This document shows positions 11,270 to 38,336 of a stretch of DNA of 64,000 bases, one piece after another. The notes under the pieces are model-generated. The model was given only the letters and a program-made list of their open reading frames with translations. It was not told the origin of the DNA and did not search any database. Source of the stretch: a virus. A program made the translations under genes and the position numbers. Every line of letters begins with the position of its first letter. Positions within the stretch are counted from its first letter, which is position 1. The stretch is from IMG/VR virus record IMGVR_UViG_3300007734_000753, positions 1 to 64,000 of that record; one strand, written 5' to 3'.

Positions 11270-11301
11270 AACAATAGTTTCAGTATTGACTACTTATTGT
11301 A

Positions 11302-12516
11302 ATGTATAAATTTACTGAAAACGATATATTTTTCAATACTGTAAAAACGTATCCAAAATACTCTTTTATGATGTATAATGATGGTCTATACATCAACAAT
11401 CAGATAAAAGAAGGCAACAACAAAACATCCAGTTCTATAAATGTTTTTGAGACAAACAATACTGTTTCAGCAGATGGTAATTGGATTATTTACGATAAAA
11501 CTTATTCTAATGGAAATGTTTCACTAACACCAATAACATTTTCCCAAGGACAAGCAACATCTTCTATCTCTAGAAGTTTTATTAGAAAAAGTGGAGATGG
11601 CTATAACACTCAATACACAACAGCAAAAGCGCCCTTCAAGCTTCTAGCTGCATCAAATGCAATAAATTATTATAGACCACTAAGCCCTTATTATAACACA
11701 AGTTATTTTCTAAATACTTTTACACAAGCTTTCAATAAACCCGTTCCAAATTACTTACCATCTGGTAGCACAAGTTCCGATTTGTTGAATCCAGCTTCCG
11801 ATGTAAATATAATAGAAATACCATCCATATTTTACAAAGAAGCAATAAACCCCGGTTCTGTTGACTTACAATTTTATTTTACGGGTTCTTTGATTGGTCG
11901 AGCGCAAGATATAAAACTAAACGGCGAACTAATCCAAACAACAGGCTCCACGACTGGAAGTGTTGTTGGTATTGTTTTATATAATGAAGGAATTTTGCTC
12001 ATATCGGGAAGTGACTACATTTCATCAGATCCTTTTGTGCAAGATTATTATATACAACCAACAGCCTCTAGCGCGATAGCCGTAACAGCCCGCGCTGCTT
12101 GGAAGTATTTTGGTTCGTACAAAAATATAGCAACAGGCTATTCAATCGCTTCATCTTCATTTATTATGAATTTTGAGGGCACGAACACCATACCAACTTT
12201 GACCATGTTAGCTCATGCAAACAAGAACGATCTGAATTGGAGCAATAATCCATCATATTTACAAAGCGGATCTTTTGCTAAATACCTAGCTGTGACAAGC
12301 TCAACAAAATATATTGAGAATAGCACACTGAACATAAAAAATACTGTTAGCTCTTCTTTTGCAAACTATTCTGCTTCTTTTTATCCTCAAACATTTATCA
12401 ACACAATTGGTGTTTATAGTGAAGATGGCGAACTTATTGCGATTGCAAAAACTGCTAATCCAGTTAGAAAAACTAATGAACAAGATTATACTTTTAAGCT
12501 TAAAATAGACCTTTAG
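11302..12516 (+). CDS. Virion structural protein, paralog of 10193
   Basis: C-terminal FINTIGVYSEDGELIAIAKTANPVRK...FKLKIDL; ACTACTTA motif ends 5 nt upstream of the ATG. Confidence 0.6.
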   Translation: MYKFTENDIFFNTVKTYPKYSFMMYNDGLYINNQIKEGNNKTSSSINVFETNNTVSADGNWIIYDKTYSNGNVSLTPITFSQGQATSSISRSFIRKSGDGYNTQYTTAKAPFKLLAASNAINYYRPLSPYYNTSYFLNTFTQAFNKPVPNYLPSGSTSSDLLNPASDVNIIEIPSIFYKEAINPGSVDLQFYFTGSLIGRAQDIKLNGELIQTTGSTTGSVVGIVLYNEGILLISGSDYISSDPFVQDYYIQPTASSAIAVTARAAWKYFGSYKNIATGYSIASSSFIMNFEGTNTIPTLTMLAHANKNDLNWSNNPSYLQSGSFAKYLAVTSSTKYIENSTLNIKNTVSSSFANYSASFYPQTFINTIGVYSEDGELIAIAKTANPVRKTNEQDYTFKLKIDL

Positions 12517-12525
12517 AGAGGTTAT

Positions 12526-13050
12526 ATGATTTTAGGTTTAGACATTAGTACAAGCATCATTGGTTATACAATTCTTGATAAAGACAATAAAATAATTGAA
12601 TGCGATTGTATTCGTTTGGAAAAGTTCAAGGATTTTTTTGTAAAAGCCAAAAACGTCAAAAACAAACTAGTTTCAATCGCCAAGCAATATGATATAAGTT
12701 CGGTTTATATTGAGGAAAGCTTACAAGCGTTCAAGCCCGGTTTCTCTTCAGCCTCAACGATTCAGTCACTTTCTAAGTTCAATGGTGTTGTTTCGTGGTT
12801 GTGCAGTGAAATTTTCGATCTTACTCCTGAATATATTTCGGCTGGCACTGCAAGAAAATTTTGCGGAATAAAAGTTCCAAAGGGAGAGAAGGCAAAAATC
12901 TTCGTCTTCAACTTTATACTTGACACGATCCCCGAGTTCAACGTAGAATATACTGCTAAAGGCAATCCTGTCCCCGGTTCTTTTGACCGAGCTGACAGTT
13001 ATGTTATTGCCAAGGCAGGAAATGTTTTATGTCAAATGAACAAAAAATAA
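12526..13050 (+). CDS. RuvC-like Holliday junction resolvase
   Basis: MILGLDIST, VYIEE and DRADSYVIA supply the RuvC catalytic D/E/D-D pattern. Confidence 0.85.
   Translation: MILGLDISTSIIGYTILDKDNKIIECDCIRLEKFKDFFVKAKNVKNKLVSIAKQYDISSVYIEESLQAFKPGFSSASTIQSLSKFNGVVSWLCSEIFDLTPEYISAGTARKFCGIKVPKGEKAKIFVFNFILDTIPEFNVEYTAKGNPVPGSFDRADSYVIAKAGNVLCQMNKK
12920..12949 (+). promoter_or_regulatory. Sigma70-like promoter for primase (TTGACA-N18-TAGAAT)
   Basis: Consensus -35/-10 embedded in the 3' end of the resolvase gene, about 80 nt before the primase ATG. Confidence 0.5.
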
Positions 13051-13967
13051 AAATAATTTCCTCAATCTTTGGTGAGTATTCCAAGTCAGGAAAAGAGTTT
13101 TTATTCTATTGCCCAGCTTGTAAACATCACAAGAAAAAACTGAGTGTCAATCTTGAGAAAGATAAGTTCAAGTGTTGGATTTGTGACTACTCTGGAAATA
13201 GTATTCGCCGTCTTGTTCGTCGCTATGGCGATGCGACTCAAAAACAAGAGTGGTACAAGATCGATAATCGGATTGAACTAGCCGATTTTGATTTAGATTT
13301 CTTTGACGAGAAGGAAGAAGAATCTCAAGAAACGATTGAGTTACCAAAACAATTTATGTCACTCTGTAACAAGGAAACTCTGGCTTCCACGGTACCGCTT
13401 TCCTATCTAAAAAATCGCAGAATAAATAAGCAAGACATTTTACAATGGAAAATTGGTTATTGTTTTGAGGGCGATTATGAAGGTCGTATTATAATTCCAT
13501 CTTTCGACATGAAAGGTGAGCCAAACTTCTTTGTGGCGAGAGCCTACTCAAAAAGTTATTATCCCAAATACAAGAATCCTCCAGCATCAAAAAACATCAT
13601 CTTCAATGAATTGTATCTTGATTTTGATGAAGATTTGATTATAACAGAGGGAGTATTTGATGCAATTGTGGCAGGAAATAATTCTGTTCCAATCCTTGGC
13701 TCCACAATCAACGAGAAAAGCCGGTTGTTTCAGAAGATTGTCACATACGACACGACAGTTTATTTGGCTCTTGATCCAGATGCGAAAGACAAAGAAAACA
13801 AAATAATTGAGAATCTTCTCAAATATGGTATTGAAATTTATAAAATCAAAGTCGATCCTTTCAAGGATGTTGGCTCAATGACCAAAGAGGACTTCCAATC
13901 CAGAAAGAAGGATGCTATACTGATCGACAACGATAACTATTTTGTTTATCAGACAATGTGTGCATAA
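13029..13967 (+). CDS. DNA primase (zinc finger + TOPRIM), gp61/DnaG-like
   Basis: CPAC...CWIC zinc finger; GRIIIP, KYKN, IITEGVFDA and LALDPDA TOPRIM motifs. Confidence 0.9.
   Translation: MSNEQKIKIISSIFGEYSKSGKEFLFYCPACKHHKKKLSVNLEKDKFKCWICDYSGNSIRRLVRRYGDATQKQEWYKIDNRIELADFDLDFFDEKEEESQETIELPKQFMSLCNKETLASTVPLSYLKNRRINKQDILQWKIGYCFEGDYEGRIIIPSFDMKGEPNFFVARAYSKSYYPKYKNPPASKNIIFNELYLDFDEDLIITEGVFDAIVAGNNSVPILGSTINEKSRLFQKIVTYDTTVYLALDPDAKDKENKIIENLLKYGIEIYKIKVDPFKDVGSMTKEDFQSRKKDAILIDNDNYFVYQTMCA
13893..13921 (+). promoter_or_regulatory. Sigma70-like promoter (TTCCAA-N17-TATACT, extended TGn) for the mre11-rad50 operon
   Basis: Lies in the primase 3' end, about 55 nt before the ATG at 13978. 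Confidence 0.45.
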
Positions 13968-13977
13968 CGGAGAATAG

Positions 13978-16900
13978 ATGAAATTTAGTCATATCAGCGA
14001 TATTCATATTCATAATCTAAAGTATCACAAAGAGCAGAAACAAGTCTTTGAGAAAGTTTATGAACACCTGAAAGCCAATAAAGTTGACATAAACATCCTT
14101 ACTGGCGATCTATTTCATATCAAAGGAAATGTTACGCCAGAAGCATATCAAGCCGCTGCTGACTTTCTAAAAAACTTGGCAGACATTGCACCAACGCATA
14201 TTATTCTTGGCAATCACGATCTAATCTTATCAAACAAGAATCGACTTGACAGCGTATCGCCAGTTGTTGATGCGTTGAATCATCCGCTTTTGTTTTTACA
14301 TAAGAATTCAGCAGAGATTACGATTGGCGATGGCAAGTTTGCTCTAAACGTAATGTCTATTGTTGATGAACAAGAGGACTGGATTCCAGTATCAAATCCA
14401 AACGCTGTGAACATTGGTTTGTATCATGGTTCAGTTGCTGGAGTTCTAACTGATCAAAATTGGGTTATGACTCATGGCGAAATAGACGTTGAGAAGTTTG
14501 CTGATTTTGATTATGTTTTGCTTGGCGATATTCACAAAGCAAATCAAATTTTAGACACAGAAGGTCGTGTTCGTTATGCAGGAAGCCTGTGTCAAAACAA
14601 CTTTGGGGATCTAGACGATAAAGGCTTTTTGATCTGGGATATAAAAGATAAAAACAACTTTACCGTTGAACATATTCATATTCCAAATCCAAAACCATTT
14701 ATAAATCTAGATCTTGAAAGCGATGGAACTGTTCCAGCTAAATTTGCTTGCCCAATTGGTTCGCGTATTCGTGCAATTGGTCACACTGATTTATCATCTG
14801 ATAAAATTAAAAAAACTCTTGAGCTTATTAGAAAAAAATACAAACCAGAAAGTTTGTCGTTTCAGAATAAATCAAAAACAAGTGACACTCGTTTGCTTTT
14901 GTCTGACTCATTGAAAAATACAAATTTACGAGACGAAGACACACAAAAGAAACTAATCAAAGAATATCTAAAAGAACACACCGTTACTGATGATGTGTTT
15001 GATGAAATTTATACTCTCAATGCTAAATATAATAGAGAGGCAGAAGCCAATGAAGAGGTATCGCGCAATGTTCAATGGAAGCTGAAGAAGCTAACATGGG
15101 ATAACCTTTTCAATTATGGGGAGGGAAACGAAATTGACTTCACCAAAATTAAAGGCACTGTGGGTATTTTTGGTAAAAACTTCTCTGGTAAGTCTAGCAT
15201 TATTGATAGCTTACTATTCGCGATTTATAATAACACTTCTAAAAATATACGAAAAAATCTCTTTGTCATCAACCAAAACAAAAAGACTGCAAGTTGCTGT
15301 GTGGAAATCGAGGTTGATAGCAAAGTATACAAGATTGAGCGCAACTTATCCAGATACACCAAAAAGCTCAAAGGAGAGGTCACGGAAGAGGCGAAGGCGA
15401 CGGTAGACTTTTCTTATTTTGATATGCTCTCAAATGAAACTGTTAGCCTAAATGGTGTTGACGGCAACGAAACAAATAAAAATATACGCAAACTATTTGG
15501 CACCATTGAAGACTTTTTTGCTACTTCAATGTCATCACAGACTGGCGCACTTGATTTTATCAACGAAGGTTCGACTCGGCGCAAAGAAATATTTGCCAAG
15601 TTCCTTGATTTAGAAATATTTGAGACAAAATTCAAGCTTGCCAAAGATCAATCTTCTGTTATCAAGGCGGCATTGCGTCGTCTTGAAAATAAGAATTTTG
15701 ATTCTGAAGCCTCTGAAATCAGGCAACTTGTTATTGATAACGAAGAGAAAACAAAGAATAAAGTTGACGAGATAGAAAAAAACAAAGTTATTATCTCTGA
15801 CCTATCAAAAGAGATTCAATCGCTTGAAGATAAAATCTCAAAGATTGATTCTGAAAACATTGATATTGTATCAGTAAAATCAGAGATAAAGAGTCTAGAG
15901 GAGACTAGAGATACTTTATTACAAGACAATTTTGCTAAAAACAAGAAAATCGAAGAGTCAGAAGCCTTCATCCAGAAAGCACAAGCCTTTTTATCTGAGT
16001 TTAATATTGACGATGTAAAGAGCAAAAAACAAAATCTAGCTTCTCTAATAAACCAACTTGACGCTCTAAACGCTTCAACTGCCGAACAAAAGAATCTTTT
16101 ATCAATTTATAAAACCCACACCGATGGGCTAAACAATCTTCCTTGTGGTAAAACTTATCTTGATTCATGTTCTTTTATCAAAGAAGCAAATGAGTATTTG
16201 AGTAAAGTTGATGTTGTCGAGCTGGCTATTCAACAGGGCGAAACAAATGGTCAGCAGCTTGCTGCCCAAATTGCAGAAATAGATGAAAACAAACTCAACA
16301 ACTATATTGAAAAATTCGAGAAGCTTCGGCTAAAGAAAAACGACGAAGAAAAAAATATCATCAATTTCAATCTTGTGATTGAGAAAAACAAAAATATAAT
16401 CACAGGTCTATCAGAAAAATTACGTCTTTTTTCTGAAAAGTTAAAGTTTTACGAAGAGCACAAAGATGCAATAGAAAACAAGAAAAACCTACTTGTTGAA
16501 CTTACAACCAAAAAAGTTGCAGTAGAAAATACTAAAGTTCTTGTAAAAAGTCTTGAGCTTGAGTTAGCATCTTTATATAAAGAACATGGTTCGCTTGAGC
16601 AAAAGATTGAGACAATAAAACAAAATGAAAAAGAAAAAGTATCCCTTGAAAAACAATATGCAGCTTATGAACTATTCATGCGTTGTATGCATAGCAACGG
16701 AATTGCATTTGATTTGATCAAAAAGAATTTACCAGTTATTAATCAAGAGATCGCCAAAGTTCTATCAAACATTGTAGAATTTGAGATATTCTTCGAGAAT
16801 ACGGATAATAAACTTGATATCTTTATCAAACACCCAAAATATGATGCTCGTCCTCTAGAAAACGGTTCCGGCGCAGAAAAAACATTAGCTGCAATGGCTA

Positions 16901-17136
16901 TTCGCATTGCTTTGATCAATATTACAAATATGCCAAAGCCAAATATTTTTATTCTTGACGAACCGGGAACTGCCCTTGATAATGATAATATGGAGGGTTT
17001 TATCCGTATTCTAGATTTGGTCAAGAACTATTTTGATATCACGGTGCTAATTAGTCATATAGATCAATTGAAAGATGCAGTTGATACAAACATTGAAATT
17101 TCGCGAAACGAAGGTTTCGCATTTGTAAAATGCTAA
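13978..17136 (+). CDS. Fused Mre11/SbcD nuclease + Rad50/SbcC ATPase (gp47-gp46)
   Basis: Metallophosphoesterase motifs SDIH, GDLFH, GNHD, LGDIH, YAGS; then Walker A GKNFSGKSS, a coiled coil, signature GSGAEK, Walker B FILDEP and ISH. Confidence 0.92.
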   Translation: MKFSHISDIHIHNLKYHKEQKQVFEKVYEHLKANKVDINILTGDLFHIKGNVTPEAYQAAADFLKNLADIAPTHIILGNHDLILSNKNRLDSVSPVVDALNHPLLFLHKNSAEITIGDGKFALNVMSIVDEQEDWIPVSNPNAVNIGLYHGSVAGVLTDQNWVMTHGEIDVEKFADFDYVLLGDIHKANQILDTEGRVRYAGSLCQNNFGDLDDKGFLIWDIKDKNNFTVEHIHIPNPKPFINLDLESDGTVPAKFACPIGSRIRAIGHTDLSSDKIKKTLELIRKKYKPESLSFQNKSKTSDTRLLLSDSLKNTNLRDEDTQKKLIKEYLKEHTVTDDVFDEIYTLNAKYNREAEANEEVSRNVQWKLKKLTWDNLFNYGEGNEIDFTKIKGTVGIFGKNFSGKSSIIDSLLFAIYNNTSKNIRKNLFVINQNKKTASCCVEIEVDSKVYKIERNLSRYTKKLKGEVTEEAKATVDFSYFDMLSNETVSLNGVDGNETNKNIRKLFGTIEDFFATSMSSQTGALDFINEGSTRRKEIFAKFLDLEIFETKFKLAKDQSSVIKAALRRLENKNFDSEASEIRQLVIDNEEKTKNKVDEIEKNKVIISDLSKEIQSLEDKISKIDSENIDIVSVKSEIKSLEETRDTLLQDNFAKNKKIEESEAFIQKAQAFLSEFNIDDVKSKKQNLASLINQLDALNASTAEQKNLLSIYKTHTDGLNNLPCGKTYLDSCSFIKEANEYLSKVDVVELAIQQGETNGQQLAAQIAEIDENKLNNYIEKFEKLRLKKNDEEKNIINFNLVIEKNKNIITGLSEKLRLFSEKLKFYEEHKDAIENKKNLLVELTTKKVAVENTKVLVKSLELELASLYKEHGSLEQKIETIKQNEKEKVSLEKQYAAYELFMRCMHSNGIAFDLIKKNLPVINQEIAKVLSNIVEFEIFFENTDNKLDIFIKHPKYDARPLENGSGAEKTLAAMAIRIALINITNMPKPNIFILDEPGTALDNDNMEGFIRILDLVKNYFDITVLISHIDQLKDAVDTNIEISRNEGFAFVKC

Positions 17137-17145
17137 AGGAGTAAA

Positions 17146-19020
17146 ATGAAAAAGTATTTATTATTAATGCCGCTTCTAATAATTGGTTGTGGTGACGATC
17201 TTGGCTGGAAAGAAAAGAAAACCGACCATGATTGTGCAGATTCAATGGTAGCCGACGCTGGTTCTTCCGACGTTGCACAACCACAAGATGTAAGTGAGGT
17301 GAACGATGTTCAATCAGACACAAATCAAGTTGTTGAAGATTCTGTTGACGCCACCGAAACTGATATATCCGATAGCAGTGGGAGCGACGACACTAGCGTT
17401 TCCGTCCCTGATAGCGTTACAGGAGAAGATGCAGGAGATTCACAAGACGCAGCGGAAGACGTAACACAAGACGTTGCACCACCACCAGAGTGCGTGACTT
17501 CAACAGATTGCGCCGCCGCCGCACTCCCTTGCATCGCTCCTGATTGTGAAGCGGGTAAATGTGTAACAGTTCCAGCGGATACACCATGCTCAGACAACGA
17601 TGAGTGTACTGTTGGCGATCAATGCCAAGTTGGTCAATGTGTTGGAGGCGCTCAGGCAAACTGTGACGATCTAAATCCATGCACAGATGATTCATGTGAT
17701 CCAGCTAAAGGCTGCGTTCATTTACCAAATCAAGTAACCTGTGTAGATGGAAATGGTTGCACTACTGATGATATTTGCAAAGATGGAGCTTGCGTAGCTG
17801 GTGTTCCATTCAATTGCGACGATGGAAATGTTTGCACAGATGATAGCTGTGAATCTATTGGTAAAAGCGAAATGCATGTTTGCAAGCATTTACCAAATCA
17901 AGCAACTTGCACTGATGACAATGTTTGCTCTTTAGACGATGCCTGTGAAGGTATGTCTTGCAAATCAAAATCAGCTGCTATTTGTGATGATAGTAACATT
18001 TGCACAAACGATTCTTGTGATCCTGTAGCTGGTTGTGTATTTTTACCAAATGAAGTAACTTGCACCGATAATGATGCTTGCACCTCAGATGATAAATGTG
18101 CCGATAAAGTTTGTAAATCTGGTGCTCCGCTAAATTGTGCAGACACAAATGATTGCACAACTGACTTATGTAAGCCAGAAACGGGCTGTTATTTTGATAA
18201 TAATCAAAATGTTTGCAGTGATAATAATGTTTGTAGCGTAGATGATAAGTGTGAAGCTGGTGTTTGTGTCGCTGGTCTTCCAAAAGTTTGCGATGATGCA
18301 AATATATGCACGGTTGATTCTTGCGATCCTGTAAATGGATGCAAAGCTGTAAATGCTGCTGATGGGACAAAGTGTGCTGAAGGTATTTGCCAAAATGGCG
18401 CTTGTGCTTGCGTAAGCGGATTTGGCTGTGCTTCACCTAGCTTCTCATACGCCTCAGAAACAAATGCAGGCATGTTAGGCGGCATGGGTGGGCAAGTTGG
18501 ACCAAAGATGGGTTGCAACGCTACTGATGTAATTATTGGTATCGGTTTTGATTTCAGTAATGGTCAAAAGAATGCAACAAAAACAACTGTCGTTTGTGGT
18601 AAAGTTTCTGTAGCACAAGACAGCACAGTTTCAACTGTTCAGACAACAACACAAAAGAACGGTGGTTCTGGCTGCTTTGGTTGGGATCCATCAACTCCAA
18701 CTCCGCTTGTTGTTTGTCCAAATGGCTGGGCTGTGGTTGGTATTGAAGGAACAAAAGCGGGTTCAACATTGTTCAATAATGTTAAGCTTGTTTGTGGTAA
18801 GTTGGGAATTAATGGTAAATCAACAGGAGAGACACAAACTCTAACTGTTAATGGAACCACTGGTCCCGGCACCCAAGCACAAGTTGTTGCTTGTGCCGCT
18901 GGAACAATCGCTCGTTATTTTGAGACGAGAGCTGGTTGTGGTCAAGATGCTTTGACTTTGTATTGTGCTACACCTTCACCAGATTGCACTGGTCAAGAAT
19001 TAATTTGTAAGGATCTATAA
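17146..19020 (+). CDS. Surface lipoprotein: acidic linker + Cys-rich (CDDxNxCTxDxC) repeat stalk + C-terminal beta-prism lectin-like domain
   Basis: Lipobox LIIG|C; about 10 CDDxNxCTxDSC-type repeats (Dictyostelium/myxobacterial type); C-terminal three-fold repeat GG..C...V.G......L.C like jacalin/VMO-I beta-prism I. Confidence 0.75.
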   Translation: MKKYLLLMPLLIIGCGDDLGWKEKKTDHDCADSMVADAGSSDVAQPQDVSEVNDVQSDTNQVVEDSVDATETDISDSSGSDDTSVSVPDSVTGEDAGDSQDAAEDVTQDVAPPPECVTSTDCAAAALPCIAPDCEAGKCVTVPADTPCSDNDECTVGDQCQVGQCVGGAQANCDDLNPCTDDSCDPAKGCVHLPNQVTCVDGNGCTTDDICKDGACVAGVPFNCDDGNVCTDDSCESIGKSEMHVCKHLPNQATCTDDNVCSLDDACEGMSCKSKSAAICDDSNICTNDSCDPVAGCVFLPNEVTCTDNDACTSDDKCADKVCKSGAPLNCADTNDCTTDLCKPETGCYFDNNQNVCSDNNVCSVDDKCEAGVCVAGLPKVCDDANICTVDSCDPVNGCKAVNAADGTKCAEGICQNGACACVSGFGCASPSFSYASETNAGMLGGMGGQVGPKMGCNATDVIIGIGFDFSNGQKNATKTTVVCGKVSVAQDSTVSTVQTTTQKNGGSGCFGWDPSTPTPLVVCPNGWAVVGIEGTKAGSTLFNNVKLVCGKLGINGKSTGETQTLTVNGTTGPGTQAQVVACAAGTIARYFETRAGCGQDALTLYCATPSPDCTGQELICKDL

Positions 19021-19022
19021 TC

Positions 19023-20036
19023 ATGAAAAAGCTGCTGATACTTTTATTATTATTTATTCCAAAAGTTGCTGACGCTTGGGAATCAACTATAGGCGTTGGT
19101 GCTTATGCGAGAAGATTTAATGAAAAGGATCAGCTTGGTGCTCTTTCTAAAGATGAAGGTCTAAAACCAGAGAGTTCGGCTGGGTTGGCACTGAACGGTT
19201 CATTTCTGTTCAATGTCAGCCCTTCCCTATTATTTGGTCCAGATTTAACAATAACTTATTCTTGGTTATCTGCGCCACAACAAGACAATTTACAAACTCA
19301 AAGTCTTATCGCTGCTGGTAATTTACAATATAATGATAACGGCTTTAGTTTGGCTCTAAAATCCGGTTTTATTCTAAACTCACTTACTACTGAATATGAT
19401 ATAAAGATTGATTTTGATACAGGTTTTATAACTTCTGTGAAGGTTGGTTCAGAGGTTATGGATTCCGCAAGATTTTATTTTGAGCCACAGCTAATCATAA
19501 CTCCATCAACTGAGGCGAAGAATGTTTTTGTAAATTCATTTGCTTTGGTTATTGGTATTGAAAATGTATTTAGACCAAAGAAAAAGATTGAGGTTGTGAA
19601 AGTTGTAGAGGCTATTGTTGAACCTCCTAAAGAAATAACTCCCGTAAAATTACCAGAAGTTATTACACCAGTTGCCGCTCCACCTATTATTGTTGTAGCT
19701 CCAATCGTCGTTGAGCCACCAAAAGAAATAACGCCAGTAAAATTGCCAGAACCTCCAACGCCAGTTCAGCCTGTCGAAAAACCAAAGCCATTAGTTCTAA
19801 AATTTGATGGAAATGAACTATCACCAGAATCTATTGGCTTTTTAGAGAATATTGTAAAAATTCATAATAGTGTTGCCTCTGTTATCAAAGTCAATCACAG
19901 CAGAGGAAATAATGCTAAAAAGAAAGCAGAAATATTATACACTTGGTTTACTAATCATGGAGCGAAGAAAAAAGAGGTATTGGTAGTTCCCGGTCTAAAA
20001 GGCAAGGAAATAAGAATCGAAGTCGTTCCAAAGTAG
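19023..20036 (+). CDS. Outer-membrane beta-barrel protein with a Pro-rich linker and a degenerate OmpA C-terminal domain
   Basis: Signal peptide (VADA|W); amphipathic beta strands ending FALVIGIENVF; Pro/Val linker; LKFDGNELSPESIGFLENI...KAEILYTWFTNHG...RIEVV follows the OmpA-C layout. Confidence 0.65.
   Translation: MKKLLILLLLFIPKVADAWESTIGVGAYARRFNEKDQLGALSKDEGLKPESSAGLALNGSFLFNVSPSLLFGPDLTITYSWLSAPQQDNLQTQSLIAAGNLQYNDNGFSLALKSGFILNSLTTEYDIKIDFDTGFITSVKVGSEVMDSARFYFEPQLIITPSTEAKNVFVNSFALVIGIENVFRPKKKIEVVKVVEAIVEPPKEITPVKLPEVITPVAAPPIIVVAPIVVEPPKEITPVKLPEPPTPVQPVEKPKPLVLKFDGNELSPESIGFLENIVKIHNSVASVIKVNHSRGNNAKKKAEILYTWFTNHGAKKKEVLVVPGLKGKEIRIEVVPK
19617..19751 (+). repeat. Duplicated linker peptide VEPPKEITPVKLPE (19617-19658 and 19710-19751)
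   Basis: Identical 14-aa repeat with synonymous nucleotide differences. Confidence 0.85.
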
Positions 20037-20042
20037 GGCAAA

Positions 20043-22127
20043 ATGAAAAAATTATCTTTATTATTATTGTTGGTGGCTTGTTCTAACGCCGATCCAACAA
20101 CTCAATCTTCTTTATCTATTGGCGGTAGTTTTATATTTGATGCCGGAACTCAAACGGAAAAAGACGCCGAAGAAGATACCAAAGAACAAACTTTTGATAC
20201 TGTATCGTCTGAAGATATACAGGATATAGTTGAGGACATACAACAAGATATAACAGAAGATTCACAGACAGATGTAGTAGAACAAATAGACACTATAAAA
20301 GATACCAAACCAATTTGCGTCGATGAAGATGGTGATGGATATGGTGAAAATTGCTCTAAGGGCAGCGACTGCGATGATGCCAATCCAAATTTCACAACGT
20401 ATTGCCCAGACTGTAAAAAAGGCAATTATCCCGGCTGTATTTGCTCTGGTAAATCCGCTCCATGCTATTCAGCAGATCCAACAACAAAAGCCGTTGGTCA
20501 ATGTAAAGCAGGAACGCAAGCTTGCAAATCTGGTATTTGGCAAGTTTGTATTGGTGAGATAACACCTTCACCAGAAGTTTGTGATAACATTGATAATGAC
20601 TGTGATGGTCAAATCGACGAAGGCGTAAAATCTTCTTGCGGAACTTGTGATCTTACTTGCGTAAAACAATCAGTCGGAGTCAATGAACCTATTATTCTCA
20701 ACTCCGAGAACTCTTCTGGTGTCGGTATTGATCCAAATACAGGCTTTATAAAGATTGATTCAAGCCAAATCTCATTGAAGCTCAAGTTCTTGTGGGCTTC
20801 TAATTCAAGTGAAAATACTGTATCAAAAGTTGATTGTAAGACAATAAAAGAATCTGGTCGTTATCAAGTATGTAATAATCCCTCAAGAACATCTGTAGAT
20901 CTTGATGGAAATGTATTTGCTGCCTGTCGTGGTGATGGTAAGGTAGCAAAAATTATTGCGGATAAAAAGAACTGTATTGATAAAAATGGAAATGGTGTTA
21001 TTGAGACAAGCGAAGATCTAAATGGTGATGGCAATATATCTGGTAATGAAATGGCGAATAATGATGAATGTATCCAATTTATCGTTCAGCCATTAGGCAA
21101 TCAATCCTCTTATCCCGGCTCAAGAGGTGCGGCAGTTGATAAGTTCAATAATGTTTATATTGGTTATTGGAATGAAGCCAAAGTTGCCTATGTTGATGGA
21201 AAAACAGGGGCAACGATAAAAATAATTGATTGGCAATGCCCGACTTATGGTCTAGTTGTTGATCAAAAAGGAACTCTATGGGGTCAAGGTAATGGCTGCG
21301 GTTGGCTAATGTCCTACAATCCAACCAGCGGTCAATGGGCAAAAGCTTCCTCATATGGGGCAAATGGAATTAGTGCTTATGGAATCAATGTTGATGGTAA
21401 AGGTCGTATTTGGGTTGGAGGAAGTTTGGCTCGCTATAATCCAGCAGATGGAAGCTGGATGAAATGTAATATAGGTTGTGCTGGTATTGCTACGGCAAAC
21501 GACGGCATGGTTTGGCTAGCAAAAGATGGAAGCGGTATTGGAAAAGTTGATGGTGAAAATTGTGCTCAACTTGGAACTGTGAATAGTGGTGGCGCTCCGC
21601 ATGGTTGTGCTGTTGATTTTGATGGTTATGTTTGGGGTGTGAATCTTGGCGGAAACTCCGTTGATAAAATTGAACCCGGCAAGACAGGGCAACAAATAGG
21701 ACCATTATTAGGCTCTAGAAAAATAGGAAGCGGTCCATACACATATTCAGACATGACTGGATATACACTCAATTATTTTACCGCTCCAAAGGGCTTATTT
21801 ACAACAACCTTCTTCGCTGGTGGAAATGGTAATCCCATTTCGCAGATGAAGCCAAAGGCTGTATGGCAAGAACTAAATGTCGAAGCTATGTTGCCCCCTG
21901 CCACAAAAGTCCATATTCGTGTTCGTGCGGGCGATACAAAAGATCAATTAGATAATGGAAACTGGATAGACATTATGGATTTGACAGATATGGCGCAAAT
22001 GCCAGTTGATTTATCACAGAAAAACATTATTGGAATAATGCTTCAGATAGAGATAAACCTCATCACAGAAGATAAAAAGGTAAGTCCTTCTGTTGGCTCA
22101 ATAACAGCTAAGGCAAAACTACAATAA
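20043..22127 (+). CDS. Surface lipoprotein with MopE-like Cys/Asp metal-binding repeats and a Vgb-like beta-propeller
   Basis: Lipobox LVA|C; CVDEDGDGYG..DCDDANP and EVCDNIDNDCDGQIDEG; propeller blades SRTSVDLDGNVF, GAAVDKFNNVY, GLVVDQKGTLW, GINVDGKGRIW, GCAVDFDGYVW; PYTYSDMTG. Confidence 0.75.
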   Translation: MKKLSLLLLLVACSNADPTTQSSLSIGGSFIFDAGTQTEKDAEEDTKEQTFDTVSSEDIQDIVEDIQQDITEDSQTDVVEQIDTIKDTKPICVDEDGDGYGENCSKGSDCDDANPNFTTYCPDCKKGNYPGCICSGKSAPCYSADPTTKAVGQCKAGTQACKSGIWQVCIGEITPSPEVCDNIDNDCDGQIDEGVKSSCGTCDLTCVKQSVGVNEPIILNSENSSGVGIDPNTGFIKIDSSQISLKLKFLWASNSSENTVSKVDCKTIKESGRYQVCNNPSRTSVDLDGNVFAACRGDGKVAKIIADKKNCIDKNGNGVIETSEDLNGDGNISGNEMANNDECIQFIVQPLGNQSSYPGSRGAAVDKFNNVYIGYWNEAKVAYVDGKTGATIKIIDWQCPTYGLVVDQKGTLWGQGNGCGWLMSYNPTSGQWAKASSYGANGISAYGINVDGKGRIWVGGSLARYNPADGSWMKCNIGCAGIATANDGMVWLAKDGSGIGKVDGENCAQLGTVNSGGAPHGCAVDFDGYVWGVNLGGNSVDKIEPGKTGQQIGPLLGSRKIGSGPYTYSDMTGYTLNYFTAPKGLFTTTFFAGGNGNPISQMKPKAVWQELNVEAMLPPATKVHIRVRAGDTKDQLDNGNWIDIMDLTDMAQMPVDLSQKNIIGIMLQIEINLITEDKKVSPSVGSITAKAKLQ

Positions 22128-22131
22128 GCAA

Positions 22132-22141
22132 ACTACTTATA
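22132..22141 (+). promoter_or_regulatory. Late promoter motif ACTACTTATA for the lysis block
   Basis: One-mismatch copy of the motif, followed by a GGAGG SD and the endolysin ATG. Confidence 0.65.
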
Positions 22142-22161: not shown

Positions 22162-23100
22162 ATGCTAATAAAAAGAGGTATGACAGGTCCATTAGTTGCT
22201 GCTCTACAGCAAAACTTGGAAGATCTAGGATATGAACTAGGAAATGTTGATGGTGCTTTTGGTAAGAACACCGAAGCTGCTGTAAAAGATTTTCAAGGTA
22301 AAAAAGGACTTGGTGCCGATGGCGTTGTTGGTCCAAAAACATTACAAGCAATTGATGCTGCCCTAAAAGCTGCTGGCAAAGAAGGCGCTGAATTTGATGA
22401 TCAACCAGAAGAAGCCCCAGCAGTTATTCAAGAAGTAAATGTAAAAATGGGTTGGGTCACTTGCCCTGCTGATAAATATCCCGGCAAAGACGGCTATGGC
22501 TCAACAATTTTGAGAACTGATGCTGCGGCAGCATATAAAGAACTAAAAGCCGAAGTAAATGCTCTCGGTGGCGTTGTAACTTCTGCTGGTGGTCGTCGTG
22601 CTCTAAGCTCTGGTGCCGGTCCAGCAAGATCAAAAACCTCAATGCATTATACAGGTTTAGCTTTTGATATGTCATTAGCAACTGGTATGCAAAGCACAGA
22701 AAGAGATCCTTTCTTATGTGTGAGAGTTCCAGATAGCCGCAAATGGACTGTTTGGTGTAAATCAGACAAAGCCTCAGAAGTAGAATTAGATGTTGTAACT
22801 TGCTCAACTGTAAAAGGCAAGACACAACTAAAAACAACCAAAATAAAAGTAAAAGCTTTCAACTTTACCGAAGTTGCTGAAAAACATGGCTTCTACAGCA
22901 TTTCAGCTCGCAAGTCCTTCTTTGAGGGTGGTGCTTATGGTGGAGCCGAGTGGTGGCACTTCCAATACAACAAGGCTCTTACAAAGGGTCAAAGCAAGTT
23001 CGGTGAAGAACTATTAAAAGTTTATTCTCTAAATGAGGCTCAAAAGTTCGTTTATTGGAACGAAGTAAAAGACAATGTTTACGGCGTAAACTGGTTCTAA
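22162..23100 (+). CDS. Endolysin: PG-binding domain + M15 (D-Ala-D-Ala/L-Ala-D-Glu) peptidase
   Basis: N-terminal LQQNL..LGY..G.VDG.FG..TE.AVK.FQ...GL.ADGVVGPKT; SMHYTGLAFD and EWWHFQY zinc-peptidase motifs. Confidence 0.9.
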   Translation: MLIKRGMTGPLVAALQQNLEDLGYELGNVDGAFGKNTEAAVKDFQGKKGLGADGVVGPKTLQAIDAALKAAGKEGAEFDDQPEEAPAVIQEVNVKMGWVTCPADKYPGKDGYGSTILRTDAAAAYKELKAEVNALGGVVTSAGGRRALSSGAGPARSKTSMHYTGLAFDMSLATGMQSTERDPFLCVRVPDSRKWTVWCKSDKASEVELDVVTCSTVKGKTQLKTTKIKVKAFNFTEVAEKHGFYSISARKSFFEGGAYGGAEWWHFQYNKALTKGQSKFGEELLKVYSLNEAQKFVYWNEVKDNVYGVNWF

Positions 23101-23111
23101 GGAGTAAAAAT

Positions 23112-23456
23112 ATGGATAACAAGTTATTAAAAAAATTAATCATGGAAGAATTAAAAGTATTATTGAAAGAGGAAGTAGGAGGTTCTACCGCAAATCATCC
23201 TTGCGTAAAAGGCGATCCTATTCGTCCCGGCTATAGAAGTGTAAATGATGATACAAGCTCTCTTCAGCCAGCAGAAGCACAATTATCAAAAGCAAGATGC
23301 TTTAGAGCCGCAATCAATCTTACAGAACAAGCAAAAAAAACAACACCAACTGGCGGCGGGGCAGATCGTGGCGCGTATGTGCCAACCCCACAGGGAGAAA
23401 AACTTCTCAACATGGCGAAGCAAGCAATTGAAACTTATTTCCAACTGCAGAAATAA
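23112..23456 (+). CDS. Hypothetical protein with an N-terminal LKKLIMEELK motif (putative internal head protein)
   Basis: The likely true start is ATG 23112 after an AGGAG SD; shares an N-terminal motif with other late ORFs. Confidence 0.55.
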   Translation: MDNKLLKKLIMEELKVLLKEEVGGSTANHPCVKGDPIRPGYRSVNDDTSSLQPAEAQLSKARCFRAAINLTEQAKKTTPTGGGADRGAYVPTPQGEKLLNMAKQAIETYFQLQK

Positions 23457-23466
23457 AGGGTAAATC

Positions 23467-23880
23467 ATGACTAACTGGCTAAAAAACAATTGGGCTACTT
23501 TGCTTGTGTTTGTTGTTGTATTATCCGCTGCTTTATGGATCAAAGGTAAATTTGATGAAAGCAATACAGAGGAAGTAAAGCAACAATATATAAAGCAAAT
23601 GGAAGATCAAAGAAAGTCTTTTGATTCTCAAATAAAAGAGATAAATAAGATTAATGAAGAAGCTTTATCAAAACAAAAAGAGTTGGCTTTACAACATCAA
23701 CAAACTTTAGAGAACCTACAACAGCAATTTGATGAAAAAGTATCTGAACTTGAAGAGTTGAAAAAACTAAAAGTAAAAGAACTTACAAAGCAGCTTACTG
23801 ATGATCCAGAAGTTGCTGTTCATGAAATGGCTCATAAGTTTGGTTTTGATGTTGTCGTTGTTCCCGAGGAAGAACCATGA
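23467..23880 (+). CDS. i-spanin-like protein (N-terminal TM + coiled coil)
   Basis: WATLLVFVVVLSAALWI TM followed by a Q/E/K coiled coil; located in the lysis block. Confidence 0.55.
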   Translation: MTNWLKNNWATLLVFVVVLSAALWIKGKFDESNTEEVKQQYIKQMEDQRKSFDSQIKEINKINEEALSKQKELALQHQQTLENLQQQFDEKVSELEELKKLKVKELTKQLTDDPEVAVHEMAHKFGFDVVVVPEEEP

Positions 23881-24308
23881 ATAAAATAATAGCATTTATA
23901 TTATGTTTCTTGTTTCCTCTATCAGCGTTCGCAGATAACGGCAAAGTTGCTTCAATTAGAGAAAGCCAGAAAGCTCCATTTACAGGCTTTCTTTTTGATG
24001 CCGCAGCATTTGCTAAGATAGAAGTTGATAAACAAACCATTATTGAGAAATATGAACTTGAGAAAAAGTTATTAATTGAAAAATGCGAGGCAGAGAAAAA
24101 GTTTCTAAATGAAACTTGTATCAACGAAAAAGATGTTTTAGTCAAAACAAACGACGTTGTTCTCAAAGGAAAAGATGAAGAAATAACAAGGCTAAATAAA
24201 ATTATTGCTGATATGGCTCCACCAAATAGAGGCTTATGGCTTGGGCTTGGTGCGGCAGCAGGAATAGCAATTAGTCTTACAACAGTCTATTTAGTAAAGA
24301 ACTTATAG
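23877..24308 (+). CDS. Exported coiled-coil protein with a C-terminal hydrophobic helix (spanin partner-like)
   Basis: ATGA overlap with the upstream gene; signal peptide SAFA|D; C-terminal GLWLGLGAAAGIAISLTTVYLV. Confidence 0.45.
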   Translation: MNKIIAFILCFLFPLSAFADNGKVASIRESQKAPFTGFLFDAAAFAKIEVDKQTIIEKYELEKKLLIEKCEAEKKFLNETCINEKDVLVKTNDVVLKGKDEEITRLNKIIADMAPPNRGLWLGLGAAAGIAISLTTVYLVKNL

Positions 24309-24320
24309 GAGTGCTAATGT

Positions 24321-24773
24321 ATGGGAATCAAAGAAACAATTTCAGACGCAATAAAGAAAGAGGGTCAAGTGCAAGTCCCAGAAGATAAACAAAATCGTTT
24401 TAATGTAATCTTCCAAAAAATGATGAGTGTGAGATGGTATATCACATTTATCACAATGATTACTTTACTTGCTATTCTCTGCGGTATTGTGCTTTCTATT
24501 ATGGTAAAAGCTGATATGGCTCAAGAGTGGAAAGAGATTTTATTGCTTATTCTTGGCGCTTTTATTGGTTCTTATAACAGAGTTATTGACTTTTGGTTTA
24601 ATAATTCACAAAGAGATCAGATAATGCTACAGAAGATTGATGAAGAAGACGATCCACCGGGAACTCCAAAATCAGATACACTTACTGTCTCCCCAGCGCA
24701 AGACGCAATTGAAGTTAAAATGCCCGAACCTACACCAGTAAAATCAAAGGAAGAAAAAAATGAAGATAAGTGA
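24321..24773 (+). CDS. Holin-like two-TM membrane protein
   Basis: Two TM helices, EILLLILGAFIGSYNRVIDFWF, and a charged C-terminal tail; in the lysis block. Confidence 0.5.
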   Translation: MGIKETISDAIKKEGQVQVPEDKQNRFNVIFQKMMSVRWYITFITMITLLAILCGIVLSIMVKADMAQEWKEILLLILGAFIGSYNRVIDFWFNNSQRDQIMLQKIDEEDDPPGTPKSDTLTVSPAQDAIEVKMPEPTPVKSKEEKNEDK

Positions 24774-36512: not shown

Positions 36513-38336
36513 ATGGCTACTATTGTTGAAAGTTTAACAAGAGATATAGTCGATCGCGATCTCCGTAAAGAAGGTGCCAATCTCATTAAGAAATGGGAAA
36601 AGACTGGTCTTCTTGAAGGTTTGAGCGACGACAGAGTAAAAAATACAATGTCGGTTCTATTAGAGAACCAAGCAAAAGAACTACTACGTGAAGCTTCTTC
36701 AATGTCCGCTGGTGACGTTGAAGGTTTCGCCGCTGTAGCATTTCCAATTGTACGTCGTGTATTCGGCGGTCTAATTGCAAATGAATTAGTTTCTGTACAA
36801 CCAATGTCATTACCATCAGGTCTAATCTTCTTCCTAGATTTTACCTTCTCGGCTGACACTGGCGCTAGAACTCAATCAGGGTTTACTGCTGTAACTGCTT
36901 CTTCAGTATACGGTGGCGGCGTTGTTGGTCAACAAATCACTGGCGGTGTAAGCCTAACTGGTGCTAATGCCGAAACGAGCTTCTATGCTCTAAATAACGG
37001 CTACTCAAGCGCCACTGGCTCTGCGGCAACAACTGTTGCTGCTGCAACCCCAGATGACCTTTTTGGTAGTGGTGATACAACATCACTACAAAATAGAACA
37101 CTTGCTGTTATTACAGCAAGCGATGTTTTATATTCTGCCATTCTAGGTTATGATGCCGATGAAGCTGCTCTAAATTCCGGAACAATCTATTCTGTTGTAA
37201 GCATTCCATTATCAAACCTAACTGGTTCTGGTGGTAATCCTTTTGACACCAACAACTTGATCGCACTCAATGTTGCCTCTTCTTCTAATGGTTTGATTAC
37301 AAACCAAGCTGCTGGCACAACTCACAGCGTTGTAAGAAGATTGACAAGACTCAGTGCAGACAAGACCAAGGTTATTCTAACTGTAAAAAGCGCTGGTACC
37401 ACACCAGCCAATCCAGTAAATACTTCTGGTACTCCTGCATGTACTTTTGCAGTCAAAGATAAGTTCACCGCTGATACAACTAGATTCTCAATTTCTGAGC
37501 TTCTAGCTGCTGAAGGCGCTGGTTCTGGCTCTGTTGGTCCCGGCTTAGGTCAATCCTCTGGTGCAAATGCAACAATCCCCGAGATCGACATTAAGGTGGA
37601 TTCAATTGCTGTAACTGCTCAAACCAAGAAACTAAAAGCAAAATGGACTCCTGAGCTAGCTCAAGATCTAAATGCTTATCACAACTTGGATGCAGAAGTA
37701 GAATTGACTGGTATTCTCTCAGAGCAAATTGCTCTAGAAATCGACCAAGAGATTCTAAACGATCTAGTTAAGGGTGCCACCGCTGGTACACTTTACTGGT
37801 CACGTCGCCCCGGTAAGTTCGTAAACCGTGAAACTGGCGCATCAATTGCTTCAGCAGTTGCTCCTCCAGACTTCACTGGTAACGTGTCCGAATGGTACGA
37901 AACACTTGTAGAAACTCTAAACGACGTTTCTGCTCGTATTCACCGTAAGACACTACGCGGTGGTGCAAACTTCATGGTTTGCTCACCAGAAGTTGCTAAC
38001 ATCCTAGAGTTCACCTCTGGTTTCCGCGCTTCTGTATCTGCTGAAGAACTCAAAGGTAATTCAGTGGGTGCCGTAAAGGTTGGCTCAATGAGCAAGAAGT
38101 GGGACGTATATGTTGATCCATATTTCCCACGTAACGTAGTACTAATCGGTCGTAGAGGCAAGGCGTTCTTAGAGAGCGGCTATGTCTACGCTCCTTATGT
38201 ACCACTACAAGTTACCCCCACCATCTTTGGTGTCGAGGACTTCGTACCACGTAAAGGCGTAATGACTCGTTATGCCAAGAAGATGGTGCGCCCCGATATG
38301 TACGGTTTAGTAATCTGCGAAGATCTATTAGGCTAG
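36513..38336 (+). CDS. Major capsid protein (gp23-like)
   Basis: KWEKTGLLEGL, LLENQ, VQPMSLPSGLIF, KLKAKWTPELAQDLNAYH, EIDQEIL, YAPYVPL, PRKGVMTRY. Confidence 0.97.
   Translation: MATIVESLTRDIVDRDLRKEGANLIKKWEKTGLLEGLSDDRVKNTMSVLLENQAKELLREASSMSAGDVEGFAAVAFPIVRRVFGGLIANELVSVQPMSLPSGLIFFLDFTFSADTGARTQSGFTAVTASSVYGGGVVGQQITGGVSLTGANAETSFYALNNGYSSATGSAATTVAAATPDDLFGSGDTTSLQNRTLAVITASDVLYSAILGYDADEAALNSGTIYSVVSIPLSNLTGSGGNPFDTNNLIALNVASSSNGLITNQAAGTTHSVVRRLTRLSADKTKVILTVKSAGTTPANPVNTSGTPACTFAVKDKFTADTTRFSISELLAAEGAGSGSVGPGLGQSSGANATIPEIDIKVDSIAVTAQTKKLKAKWTPELAQDLNAYHNLDAEVELTGILSEQIALEIDQEILNDLVKGATAGTLYWSRRPGKFVNRETGASIASAVAPPDFTGNVSEWYETLVETLNDVSARIHRKTLRGGANFMVCSPEVANILEFTSGFRASVSAEELKGNSVGAVKVGSMSKKWDVYVDPYFPRNVVLIGRRGKAFLESGYVYAPYVPLQVTPTIFGVEDFVPRKGVMTRYAKKMVRPDMYGLVICEDLLG

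Follow-up and report, generated by a model that had tools for sequence, protein, structure and literature searches.

The stretch of DNA analyzed here, referred to as the window, is the first 64 kb of the 76.7-kb IMG/VR record IMGVR_UViG_3300007734_000753, a phage genome whose completeness was estimated by CheckV to be ~42%. At positions 17146-22127 it carries three consecutive genes for exported proteins, here called p1, p2, and p3, which are separated by only 2 nt (p1/p2) and 6 nt (p2/p3) and are located between a gene for a fused SbcD/SbcC (Mre11-Rad50-like) protein and an endolysin gene. A previous sequence-only reading had described them as a three-gene cell-surface module reminiscent of the myxobacterial TraA/TraB system, and the open reading frames (ORFs), gaps, and position that it gave were reproduced. 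The lipoboxes of p1 (LIIG/C15) and p3 (LVA/C13) and the signal peptide of p2 (residues 1-18, ..KVADA/WE) are readable in the sequence as it had stated, and both lipobox cysteines are invariant in the alignments of their families. The three genes and their domains are the following, where AF2 denotes an AlphaFold2 model:

17146-19020, + strand: p1, ORF of 624 aa
17146-17235, + strand: p1 signal peptide, lipobox, and membrane-proximal peptide CGDDLGW..DxDC (residues 15-30), from the homologue alignment
17236-17472, + strand: p1 acidic, low-complexity, poorly conserved linker (residues 31-109), from the homologue alignment
17473-18420, + strand: p1 disulfide-rich Dicty_CTDC-type stalk (residues 110-425, 49 Cys), from Pfam and the alignment
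18421-19017, + strand: p1 beta-prism I (jacalin/VMO-I-like) lectin domain (residues 426-624), predicted fold
19023-20036, + strand: p2, ORF of 337 aa
19077-19571, + strand: p2 8-stranded outer-membrane (OM) beta-barrel (residues 19-183), AF2
Residues 184-253, + strand: p2 Pro-rich linker, disordered in AF2
19782-20033, + strand: p2 small alpha/beta C-terminal domain (residues 254-337), beta-alpha-beta-alpha-beta-beta in AF2
20043-22127, + strand: p3, ORF of 694 aa
Residues 14-90, + strand: p3 acidic linker
20313-20672, + strand: p3 Cys-rich MopE-like domain (residues ~91-210)
Residues 211-694, + strand: p3 beta-propeller and conserved C-terminal part, the propeller being assigned from weak Pfam signals

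The codon usage of the trio is fully phage-like, which agrees with the earlier view that the genes are long-resident. Their GC content at third codon positions is 0.24-0.26, compared with 0.28 +/- 0.05 in the other genes of the window, and all 5 Pro-Gly pairs are encoded as CCC-GG (elsewhere, 29 CCC and 5 CCG). No PHROGs family was found for p1, p2, or p3, for the small lysis-cassette proteins, or for the neighbors in high-GC loci, and NCBIfam gave nothing meaningful for any protein of the trio. A search of 50,697 GenBank phage records yielded no protein match for p1, p2, or p3 and no DNA match for the region.

Predicted Structure of p1

The membrane-proximal peptide of p1 is nearly invariant among 14 homologues: no exchange is seen at C15, G16, D17, D18, L19, G20, D29, or C30, and W21 hardly varies. 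The mean pairwise identity of this part is 0.66 versus 0.26 for the linker that follows it. The stalk, in which the sequence-only reading had noticed CDDxNxCTxDxC repeats, was identified as Pfam Dicty_CTDC (PF00526) in 5 stretches with a score of 72.7 bits (cut-off 27, E = 1.9e-20). The MopE-like repeats read in p3 at the same time were matched below threshold only (PF11617, 22.9 bits versus a cut-off of 27). The stalk varies from 160 to 415 residues among homologues, and that of p1 is 41-46% identical to Dicty_CTDC Cys-repeat lipoproteins encoded in Myxococcota metagenome-assembled genomes (MAGs). Lipoproteins of this type are neighbors of p3 genes (within 6 kb) in 23 bacterial loci, and the resemblance suggests that p1 may be a chimera of host parts.

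The C-terminal domain, hereafter the tip, was modeled with a pLDDT of 82 and a pTM of 0.83 from an 18-row alignment. The model contains three four-stranded Greek-key sheets arranged as a prism, which is characteristic of beta-prism I, and Foldseek retrieved jacalin-related lectins for it at a probability of 1.0 (E = 1e-5). In VIA-align, the Z-scores over ~140 residues were 14.5 for VMO-I, 13.3 for ZG16, and 11-13 for plant and archaeal jacalin-type lectins, and those for the beta-prism domains of Vibrio cholerae cytolysin, RbmC, and Bap1 were 8.7-9.3. The tip thus shares its fold with this whole group (Z = 8.7-14.5), whose members are typically sugar-binding; RbmC and Bap1 are biofilm matrix proteins according to their PDB titles. 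It differs from beta-prism I lectins in its many invariant cysteines and in being mounted on a lipoprotein stalk. There was no match to Pfam Jacalin in p1, a PDB sequence-profile search with the p1 alignment returned noise only, and nothing relevant was found in the literature on jacalin-type phage lipoproteins. A Gly-rich loop, GGMGG, and the motif G597-x-x-x-D601 are invariant in the homologue alignment, and they may be equivalent to the sugar site of jacalin. The tip is also the best conserved region of the protein, with a mean pairwise identity of 0.69 and without gaps.

Predicted Structure of p2

The p2 model exhibits 8 antiparallel strands behind the signal peptide, as is expected for a small OM barrel, and the mean pLDDT of the barrel (residues 19-183) is >90 in most 10-residue blocks. 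Foldseek matched it to OmpA, OmpX, OmpW, Ail, and NspA at a probability of 1.0, with TM-scores up to 0.68 per target. The fold predictions for p1 and p2 therefore agree with the lectin tip and the OmpA-like barrel previously read from the sequence. Relatives of p2 are rare, as only 18 were detected among 1.84 billion representatives.

The identity of the C-terminal domain was less obvious. No Pfam match to the OmpA/MotB domain (PF00691) was obtained in p2 at E <= 0.1, and the PDB sequence-profile search with the p2 alignment gave noise only, with no OmpA_C. Among 401 scanned Myxococcota genomes, p2 was not found apart from a weak match of its profile to OmpA_C lipoproteins in three of them, and it showed no similarity to the OmpA-family protein encoded in the vicinity of the closest p3 of bacteria. 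A direct hhalign comparison of the domain with a canonical OmpA_C lipoprotein, in contrast to the Pfam search, gave a probability of 93% (E = 2.8e-7) and located an 11-residue deletion in p2 at the loop just before the 'LSxxRA' segment. In canonical OmpA_C we take this loop to be the wall-binding one. The predicted architecture of p2 is hence that of OmpA, with a C-terminal domain that is reduced and possibly unable to bind the wall.

A similar fold, consisting of a small barrel and an OmpA-like C-terminal domain, is predicted for phage proteins in BFVD (e.g., R9ZWT8 of Cellulophaga phage phi17:2 and proteins of uncultured viruses), for which Foldseek gave E = 1e-11 to 1e-7 at a sequence identity of 12-15%. 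These are likened to p2 by fold alone, and none of them is reported to have a lectin lipoprotein as a partner. Small barrels are, to judge from such models, commonly encoded by phages.

Conservation of the p1-p2 Pair

Wherever downstream DNA is available (~18 phage loci: L121-131, L133/134, L138/139, L103, L120, and the window), p2 is the next gene after p1, separated from it by 2 nt or overlapping it. This pairing spans lectin identities down to 59%, p2 identities down to ~25%, contigs with a GC content of 0.35-0.63, and three different genomic positions. The usual place of the pair is within or beside the lysis cassette. In the sister phage L103, whose capsid protein is 64% identical and whose structural module is syntenic, p1, p2, and p3 occur in the same order (71, 45, and 48% identity) directly after the capsid gene. 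In L120 (GC 0.49), p3 is missing: the endolysin gene and a small ORF precede p1-p2, and the gene for a homologue of the two-transmembrane (2-TM) protein encoded at 24321 in the window comes after it. The pair is likewise located between endolysin and a 2-TM holin-like gene in L133/134 and L139, and it adjoins the endolysin gene in the window lineage and in L124. In the high-GC contigs (0.61-0.63), p1-p2 is followed by a holin-like gene, and in L133 an Ntn-hydrolase-type gene precedes it. The genes that flank the trio in the window are listed below; the holin-like and spanin-like labels in the cassette were given from the sequence alone.

13978-17136: fused SbcD/SbcC (Mre11-Rad50-like), upstream neighbor of p1
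22162-24773, + strand: lysis cassette, adjoining p3
22162-23100, + strand: PG_binding_1 endolysin, downstream neighbor of p3
23467-23880, + strand: TM and coiled-coil protein of the lysis cassette
23877-24308, + strand: protein of the lysis cassette with a signal, a coiled coil, and a C-terminal TM segment
24321-24773, + strand: 2-TM holin-like protein of the lysis cassette

The third gene behaves differently. Only the window lineage (L121, L122, L127) and L103 have it after p2, and it is absent from this position in L120, L124, L130, L133/134, and L139; in L124, which comprises close relatives of the window phage, two unrelated small genes replace it. Conversely, no homologue of p2 or of the p1 tip occurs within 10 kb of 78 bacterial p3 loci. 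Because most lineages lack p3 and the gene has been swapped, the conserved unit is the p1-p2 pair, and p3 is an optional, swappable add-on. The three-gene module of the sequence-only reading has accordingly to be reduced to two genes: the co-conservation that it anticipated in related phages holds for p1-p2 at every locus with downstream DNA, but for p3 only in the window lineage and L103.

Comparison with TraA and TraB

TraA begins with a signal peptide, which is followed by a lectin-like variable domain, a Cys-rich stalk, and a lipidated MYXO-CTERM; in TraB, the signal peptide precedes an OM barrel, TSP3 repeats, and an OmpA domain. Their genes form an operon, and the products have been predicted to assemble into a 1:1 complex (PMC3325183, PMC12045341). 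TraAB has been proposed to be a membrane fusogen (PMC12045341). The phage pair shares with Myxococcus xanthus TraA/TraB the arrangement of two adjacent, tightly coupled genes, and this operonic coupling of a stalked receptor gene with a barrel and OmpA-like gene recurs throughout the ~18 p1-p2 loci. As in TraA, p1 combines a lipid anchor, a cysteine-rich stalk, and a beta-rich lectin-like head, and p2 follows TraB in its order of signal peptide, OM beta-barrel, linker, and putative OmpA-type domain.

The components themselves are different. The anchor of p1 is an N-terminal lipobox and its head is C-terminal and of beta-prism I type, whereas TraA is anchored by MYXO-CTERM and has a PA14-like, N-terminal head. 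The p1 repeats are PF00526 and those of TraA are TIGR04201, two families that resemble each other (PMC3325183). In p2, the linker is Pro-rich instead of TSP3, and the OmpA_C-like domain is truncated and lies below Pfam detection, unlike the OmpA domain of TraB. Moreover, p1-p2 is encoded by phages and linked to lysis genes. A Pfam scan of p1 at E <= 0.1 detected Dicty_CTDC only and no PA14, and no NCBIfam family was found in it at E <= 0.1, including TIGR04201 and the MYXO-CTERM family TIGR03901; p1 ends in ..LICKDL. The claimed resemblance to TraAB consequently stands for the design, the gene coupling, and the relatives of the tip described below, while PA14, TIGR04201, MYXO-CTERM, the Pfam OmpA domain, and TSP3 are all unmatched. 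On the sequence evidence, p1-p2 reproduces the TraA/TraB design but is not a member of the family.

Matches to the p1 tip were obtained in 10 of the 401 Myxococcota genomes, four of them strong (44-55% identity), and the strong relatives carry DUF4215/myxo_disulf_rpt repeats. One of these proteins (L115) has a scored MYXO-CTERM domain, and another (P0165 in L114) ends in a Cys-containing hydrophobic, Arg-rich tail of the MYXO-CTERM type, which is described as a cell-surface sorting tag (PMC11980579). In L114, a 621-aa TraB-like protein is encoded by the overlapping upstream gene, and an OM-barrel signal, a TSP3 repeat, and an OmpA domain were recognized in it; a copy that is 64% identical occupies the same position directly before the lectin gene in L117. 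The lectin domains of L114 and L117 are 48-49% identical to the p1 tip. The tip thus shares ancestry with the heads of TraA-like proteins in bacteria, and the gene pairs of L114 and L117 represent an uncharacterized TraAB-like paralogue system. In each of them (L114:6218-12405 and L117:7664-11248), the TraB-like gene is followed by that of a giant Cys-repeat surface protein with an internal beta-prism lectin domain; the lectin gene of L117 appears to be split across two frames. The bacterial pairs are similar to p1-p2 in that a Cys-rich stalk protein is coupled to a barrel/OmpA protein, but their genes stand in the opposite order, their proteins are much larger (1441 aa and 621 aa), the lectin has an internal position, and the repeats are myxo_disulf_rpt. 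The hhalign comparison between p2 and the L114 TraB-like protein was not significant (probability 8.7%), with only a weak OmpA_C signal. We also considered the trio as a split version of one bacterial protein and found no support for this idea, as the comparison of the p3 profile with the N-terminal domain of P0165 was not significant. A word-indexed search returned no longer relatives of the p1 tip, which reflects the limited sensitivity of that search, since the genome scan did find such proteins.

The sequence-only reading had also considered that the module might alter kin discrimination. This is not favored, because the tip is the most conserved part of p1 (0.69), whereas the variable domain of TraA is polymorphic; the difference argues for a conserved glycan ligand instead.

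Promoter-like Motif and Timing

The motif ACTAYTTA occurs 16 times in the window, always on the + strand and mostly just upstream of genes; 6.4 copies are expected by chance, and none of 100 shuffles reached 16. The positions are as follows:

9193, 11289, 22132, 25267, 25704, 30050, 31712, 35160, + strand: ACTAYTTA(T)
38411, 41012, 46310, 55832, 58272, 60890, 63212, 63819, + strand: ACTAYTTA(T)
11289-11296, + strand: ACTAYTTA, the nearest copy upstream of the trio, heading the motif-free block 11302-22127
22132-22139, + strand: promoter-like motif ACTACTTA, upstream of the endolysin gene

The motif is typically located 5-50 nt before the starts of structural genes, the endolysin gene, and some DNA-metabolism genes. 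It is also enriched in the sister phage L103 (10 copies versus 2.1 expected). No copy lies between 11289 and 22132 in the window, and the motif-free block consists of an unknown gene, a RuvC-like resolvase, primase, SbcCD, and then p1-p2-p3. The earlier statement that no late motif stands in front of the trio is thus correct for the window. It cannot be generalized, however, as the capsid gene of L103 is followed by a GC-rich hairpin with a T-run (terminator) and then by the motif ACTATTTA, 17 nt before the p1 ATG, with another copy after p3. The L103 cassette accordingly has the appearance of a self-contained, moron-like unit equipped with the motif that precedes structural genes. Scans of 13-25 kb for sigma-70 promoters and terminators gave nothing informative. 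The L103 motif upstream of p1 and the lysis-cassette placements in other lineages argue for late expression of p1-p2, and they do not support the previous idea that the infected cell is decorated before the late genes are expressed.

Phylogeny of p3 and the Probable Host

The protein p3 has >777 homologues, and the alignment of its family has a mean column identity of 51%. It was found to be a full-length member of a large unnamed Myxococcota family, including the invariant PYTYSDMTGYTL motif, often with several paralogues per genome. Its propeller gave generic signals below cut-off only (Vgb_lyase, 18.4 bits versus 50; SGL, 15.7 versus 26.3). A scan of one genome per species produced 571 matches, the best 80 of which were kept and represent 78 distinct loci with a GC content of 0.53-0.73. 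Most of these 80 bear the title of a Myxococcota, Myxococcales, or Deltaproteobacteria MAG; the others are labeled Enterobacteriaceae, Klebsiella, Pseudomonadota, or unclassified. A language-model atlas also places the family in Myxococcota.

In a tree of 121 sequences, the clade of the window p3 is sister to a bacterial clade (L025/L027/L047) with a support of 100, while p3 of L103 is sister to another bacterial clade. Forcing all phage-type p3 rows together cost 214 log-likelihood units (approximately unbiased (AU) test, p = 2.4e-5), where the group was defined after the tree had been seen and unnamed database rows in both clades were assumed to be viral. Because the phage clades have different bacterial sisters and the AU test disfavors their union, p3 has passed between phages and Myxococcota on at least two occasions. 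Its nearest bacterial relatives are encoded in tandem (L025:3740-19509), with an OprB-family porin gene after one of the two; genes for a Dicty_CTDC lipoprotein (1001 aa), two DUF4349 proteins, and an OmpA-family protein are found nearby. In 23 other viral contigs (L002-L024), proteins match only the Cys-rich CDxxDNDCDGxxDE-type segment of p3. Thirteen of these contigs have a GC content of 0.37-0.52, and the motif is widespread in phage proteins.

The phage itself encodes terminase, portal, T4-type major head protein, and tail sheath, and all large ORFs are on one strand. Its GC content is ~0.36, and near-identical DNA is present in viral-fraction, freshwater, and estuary metagenomes. The nearest cultured relatives of its capsid protein, at <=48% identity, are distant T4-like phages of Microcystis, Flavobacterium, and Rhodothermus. 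The phage is an uncultured, T4-like, freshwater one, and apparently virulent. The host is probably a Myxococcota cell, mainly because p3 was exchanged with this phylum and because both the stalk and the tip of p1 have relatives there, which bears out the link to Myxococcota proposed earlier. Gene transfer thereby provides evidence on the host of a T4-like lineage with 36% GC, compared with 57-73% GC in its putative hosts. Such a difference would be unusually large for a phage and its host if these are indeed Myxococcota; p1-p2 itself lies on phage-like contigs of 0.35-0.63.

Possible Function of p1-p2

We propose, with a probability of roughly 0.35, that p1-p2 is a late-displayed, TraAB-like adhesin that binds a conserved host-surface glycan. 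The two proteins would constitute a two-part OM module made in the infected, probably Myxococcota, cell and transcribed with late, lysis, or structural genes. After export, p1 would be lipid-anchored at Cys15 and sorted to the OM, and its lectin would be held off the membrane by the flexible acidic tether and the rigid disulfide-rich stalk. The small OmpA-like barrel of p2 would be inserted beside it, extending the Pro-rich linker and the shortened OmpA_C-like domain into the periplasm as the partner on the membrane/cell-wall side. Binding of the lectin to a conserved surface glycan of host-type cells would then cause the infected cell and its envelope debris to stick to neighboring host cells, leading to adhesion and possibly to membrane contact. 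Where present, p3 would be an optional host-derived surface lipoprotein in the same cassette.

Several observations weigh against this proposal. Both p1 and p2 fall outside the sequence definitions of TraA and TraB, and the p2 barrel has 8 strands in ~165 aa, whereas TraB's N-terminal region is ~400 aa long. An outward orientation of p1 is suggested solely by its bacterial MYXO-CTERM relatives. Late expression would leave little time before lysis for cell-cell adhesion to matter, and the recurrent position in lysis cassettes would fit a role in lysis or on debris at least as well. With regard to the host, the GC content of the phage (0.36) is far from the 0.57-0.73 of the genomes with the closest p3 relatives, and Flavobacterium and Microcystis are the hosts of its nearest cultured relatives by capsid protein, so that a Myxococcota host can be no firmer than probable.

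The same late, lysis-cassette-linked position in several lineages and the same conserved tip, with the conserved ligand it implies, would also be compatible with receptor masking in cis, which we regard as possible although on balance unlikely. Here the stalked lectin would bind O-antigen, exopolysaccharide (EPS), or the lipopolysaccharide (LPS) core on the cell's own surface and debris, thereby blocking superinfection and keeping progeny off dead envelopes in the manner of T5 Llp or Cor, but via a lectin. Receptor-blocking OM lipoproteins are well established among the proteins encoded by phages, and the variable stalk length could follow the thickness of the surface polysaccharide. Simple masking, however, needs neither a long rigid stalk nor a barrel partner, and the trio, unmatched in PHROGs, has no homology to Llp or Cor.

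A direct part in lysis is doubtful. In such a case, p1 and/or p2 would act as an o-spanin analogue or an OM-destabilizing fusogen, alongside the cassette's inner-membrane coiled-coil proteins, after the wall has been removed by the endolysin. The location of p1-p2 between endolysin and the 2-TM holin-like gene (L120, L133/134, L139) or next to endolysin (window lineage, L124) is consistent with this role, as is the lack of a small o-spanin-type lipoprotein in the window and L120 cassettes, where spanins were judged by eye only. The periplasmic segment of p2 is Pro-rich, and o-spanins are Pro-rich as well. The proposed fusogen activity of TraAB (PMC12045341) would point in the same direction. 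On the other hand, the L103 cassette follows the capsid gene, away from any recognized lysis gene, and morons commonly land beside lysis genes without any part in lysis. With 624 aa, p1 is paired with a barrel and not with an inner-membrane coiled-coil gene; a lectin lipoprotein of ~620 aa is unlike any known spanin, and no PHROG spanin match was obtained for the trio. Rather improbable is a bolder combination of lysis and adhesion, in which p1-p2 would be a phage TraAB-type fusogen/adhesin made at lysis that joins the infected OM to neighbors or ruptures it in place of spanins, exploiting the contact biology of social/gliding Myxococcota to spread or to be released, with p3 as a swappable host mimic that would adapt the module to the host lineage.

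It is very improbable that the module faces the periplasm, with the stalk and lectin of p1 directed inward, where they would bind the glycan strands of peptidoglycan or some other periplasmic glycan and, together with the wall-directed domain of p2, alter envelope mechanics during infection. The inner leaflet of the OM is the default destination of lipoproteins, the best structural match of the tip is the beta-prism of VMO-I (Z = 14.5), and p2 keeps an OmpA_C-like remnant. This remnant, however, has lost the 11 residues before 'LSxxRA', a tether and stalk of ~400 residues seems long for the periplasm, and the bacterial tip relatives carry MYXO-CTERM, a tag for sorting to the cell surface (PMC11980579). 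That the genes are independent morons merely traveling together is scarcely credible: p3 is indeed dispensable and replaceable, but p1 and p2 are adjacent, tightly coupled, and in the same order in every locus at three genomic positions.

Relation to Other Phage Surface Proteins

Lambda Lom is an 8-strand Ail/OmpX-type barrel, and lambda Bor, T5 Llp, and Cor are lipoproteins; all change the surface of the infected or lysogenic cell and have a moron-like placement near lysis or tail genes. They share with p1-p2 the principle of phage genes for an OM barrel and OM lipoproteins, but they are small, single-domain proteins that act alone, whereas p1-p2 is an obligate pair of a barrel and a lectin lipoprotein. 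No match of the trio to proteins of this type was found in PHROGs and Pfam. With the Rz/Rz1 spanins, the pair has in common an OM lipoprotein in the lysis cassette and a Pro-rich periplasmic segment (in p2); it differs from them in size, in domains, and in the presence of a barrel.

Small phage barrels, phage surface lipoproteins, and TraAB are therefore known already, and what is new is the conserved pair of lectin-stalk and barrel proteins with an optional host-derived passenger. Genes of phages that remodel the host surface have been known mostly as single small proteins of model coliphages. In contrast, p1-p2 is a conserved module of two proteins; it has been found in uncultured phages only, follows the construction plan of myxobacterial kin contact, and appears repeatedly among lysis genes. 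If displayed on the surface, it would be an example of phages that equip the infected cell with a lectin adhesin, and it would moreover offer a handle on the large unstudied Myxococcota family of lipoproteins with a Cys-domain and a propeller, and on the TraAB-like paralogue pairs with beta-prism heads.

Other Features of the Window

The 1052-aa ORF at 13978-17136 unites SbcD (Mre11-like nuclease, residues 1-339) and SbcC (Rad50-like ATPase, residues 214-1047) in one chain, and this fusion is kept in the relatives L121, L125, and L126 (73-99% identity). Within the lysis cassette, contigs of other samples join 23104 directly to 23462, with 357 nt absent, and in L122 the endolysin gene is directly followed by a homologue of the 23467 gene. 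An indel polymorphism thus accounts for the small gene that separates the endolysin gene from the TM/coiled-coil gene.

No CCWGG site is present in the 64-kb window, in which GGCC has only 3 sites and CCSGG occurs 50 times. Proline before glycine is encoded by CCC or CCG and never by CCA or CCT, although CCA is the commonest Pro codon. The missing CCWGG and the Pro-Gly codon choice look like avoidance of Dcm/EcoRII-type sites. Finally, the T4-type major head protein at 36513-38336 has 607 aa, ~59% of which aligns to cultured relatives in two pieces; such an alignment suggests that it contains a large inserted domain.

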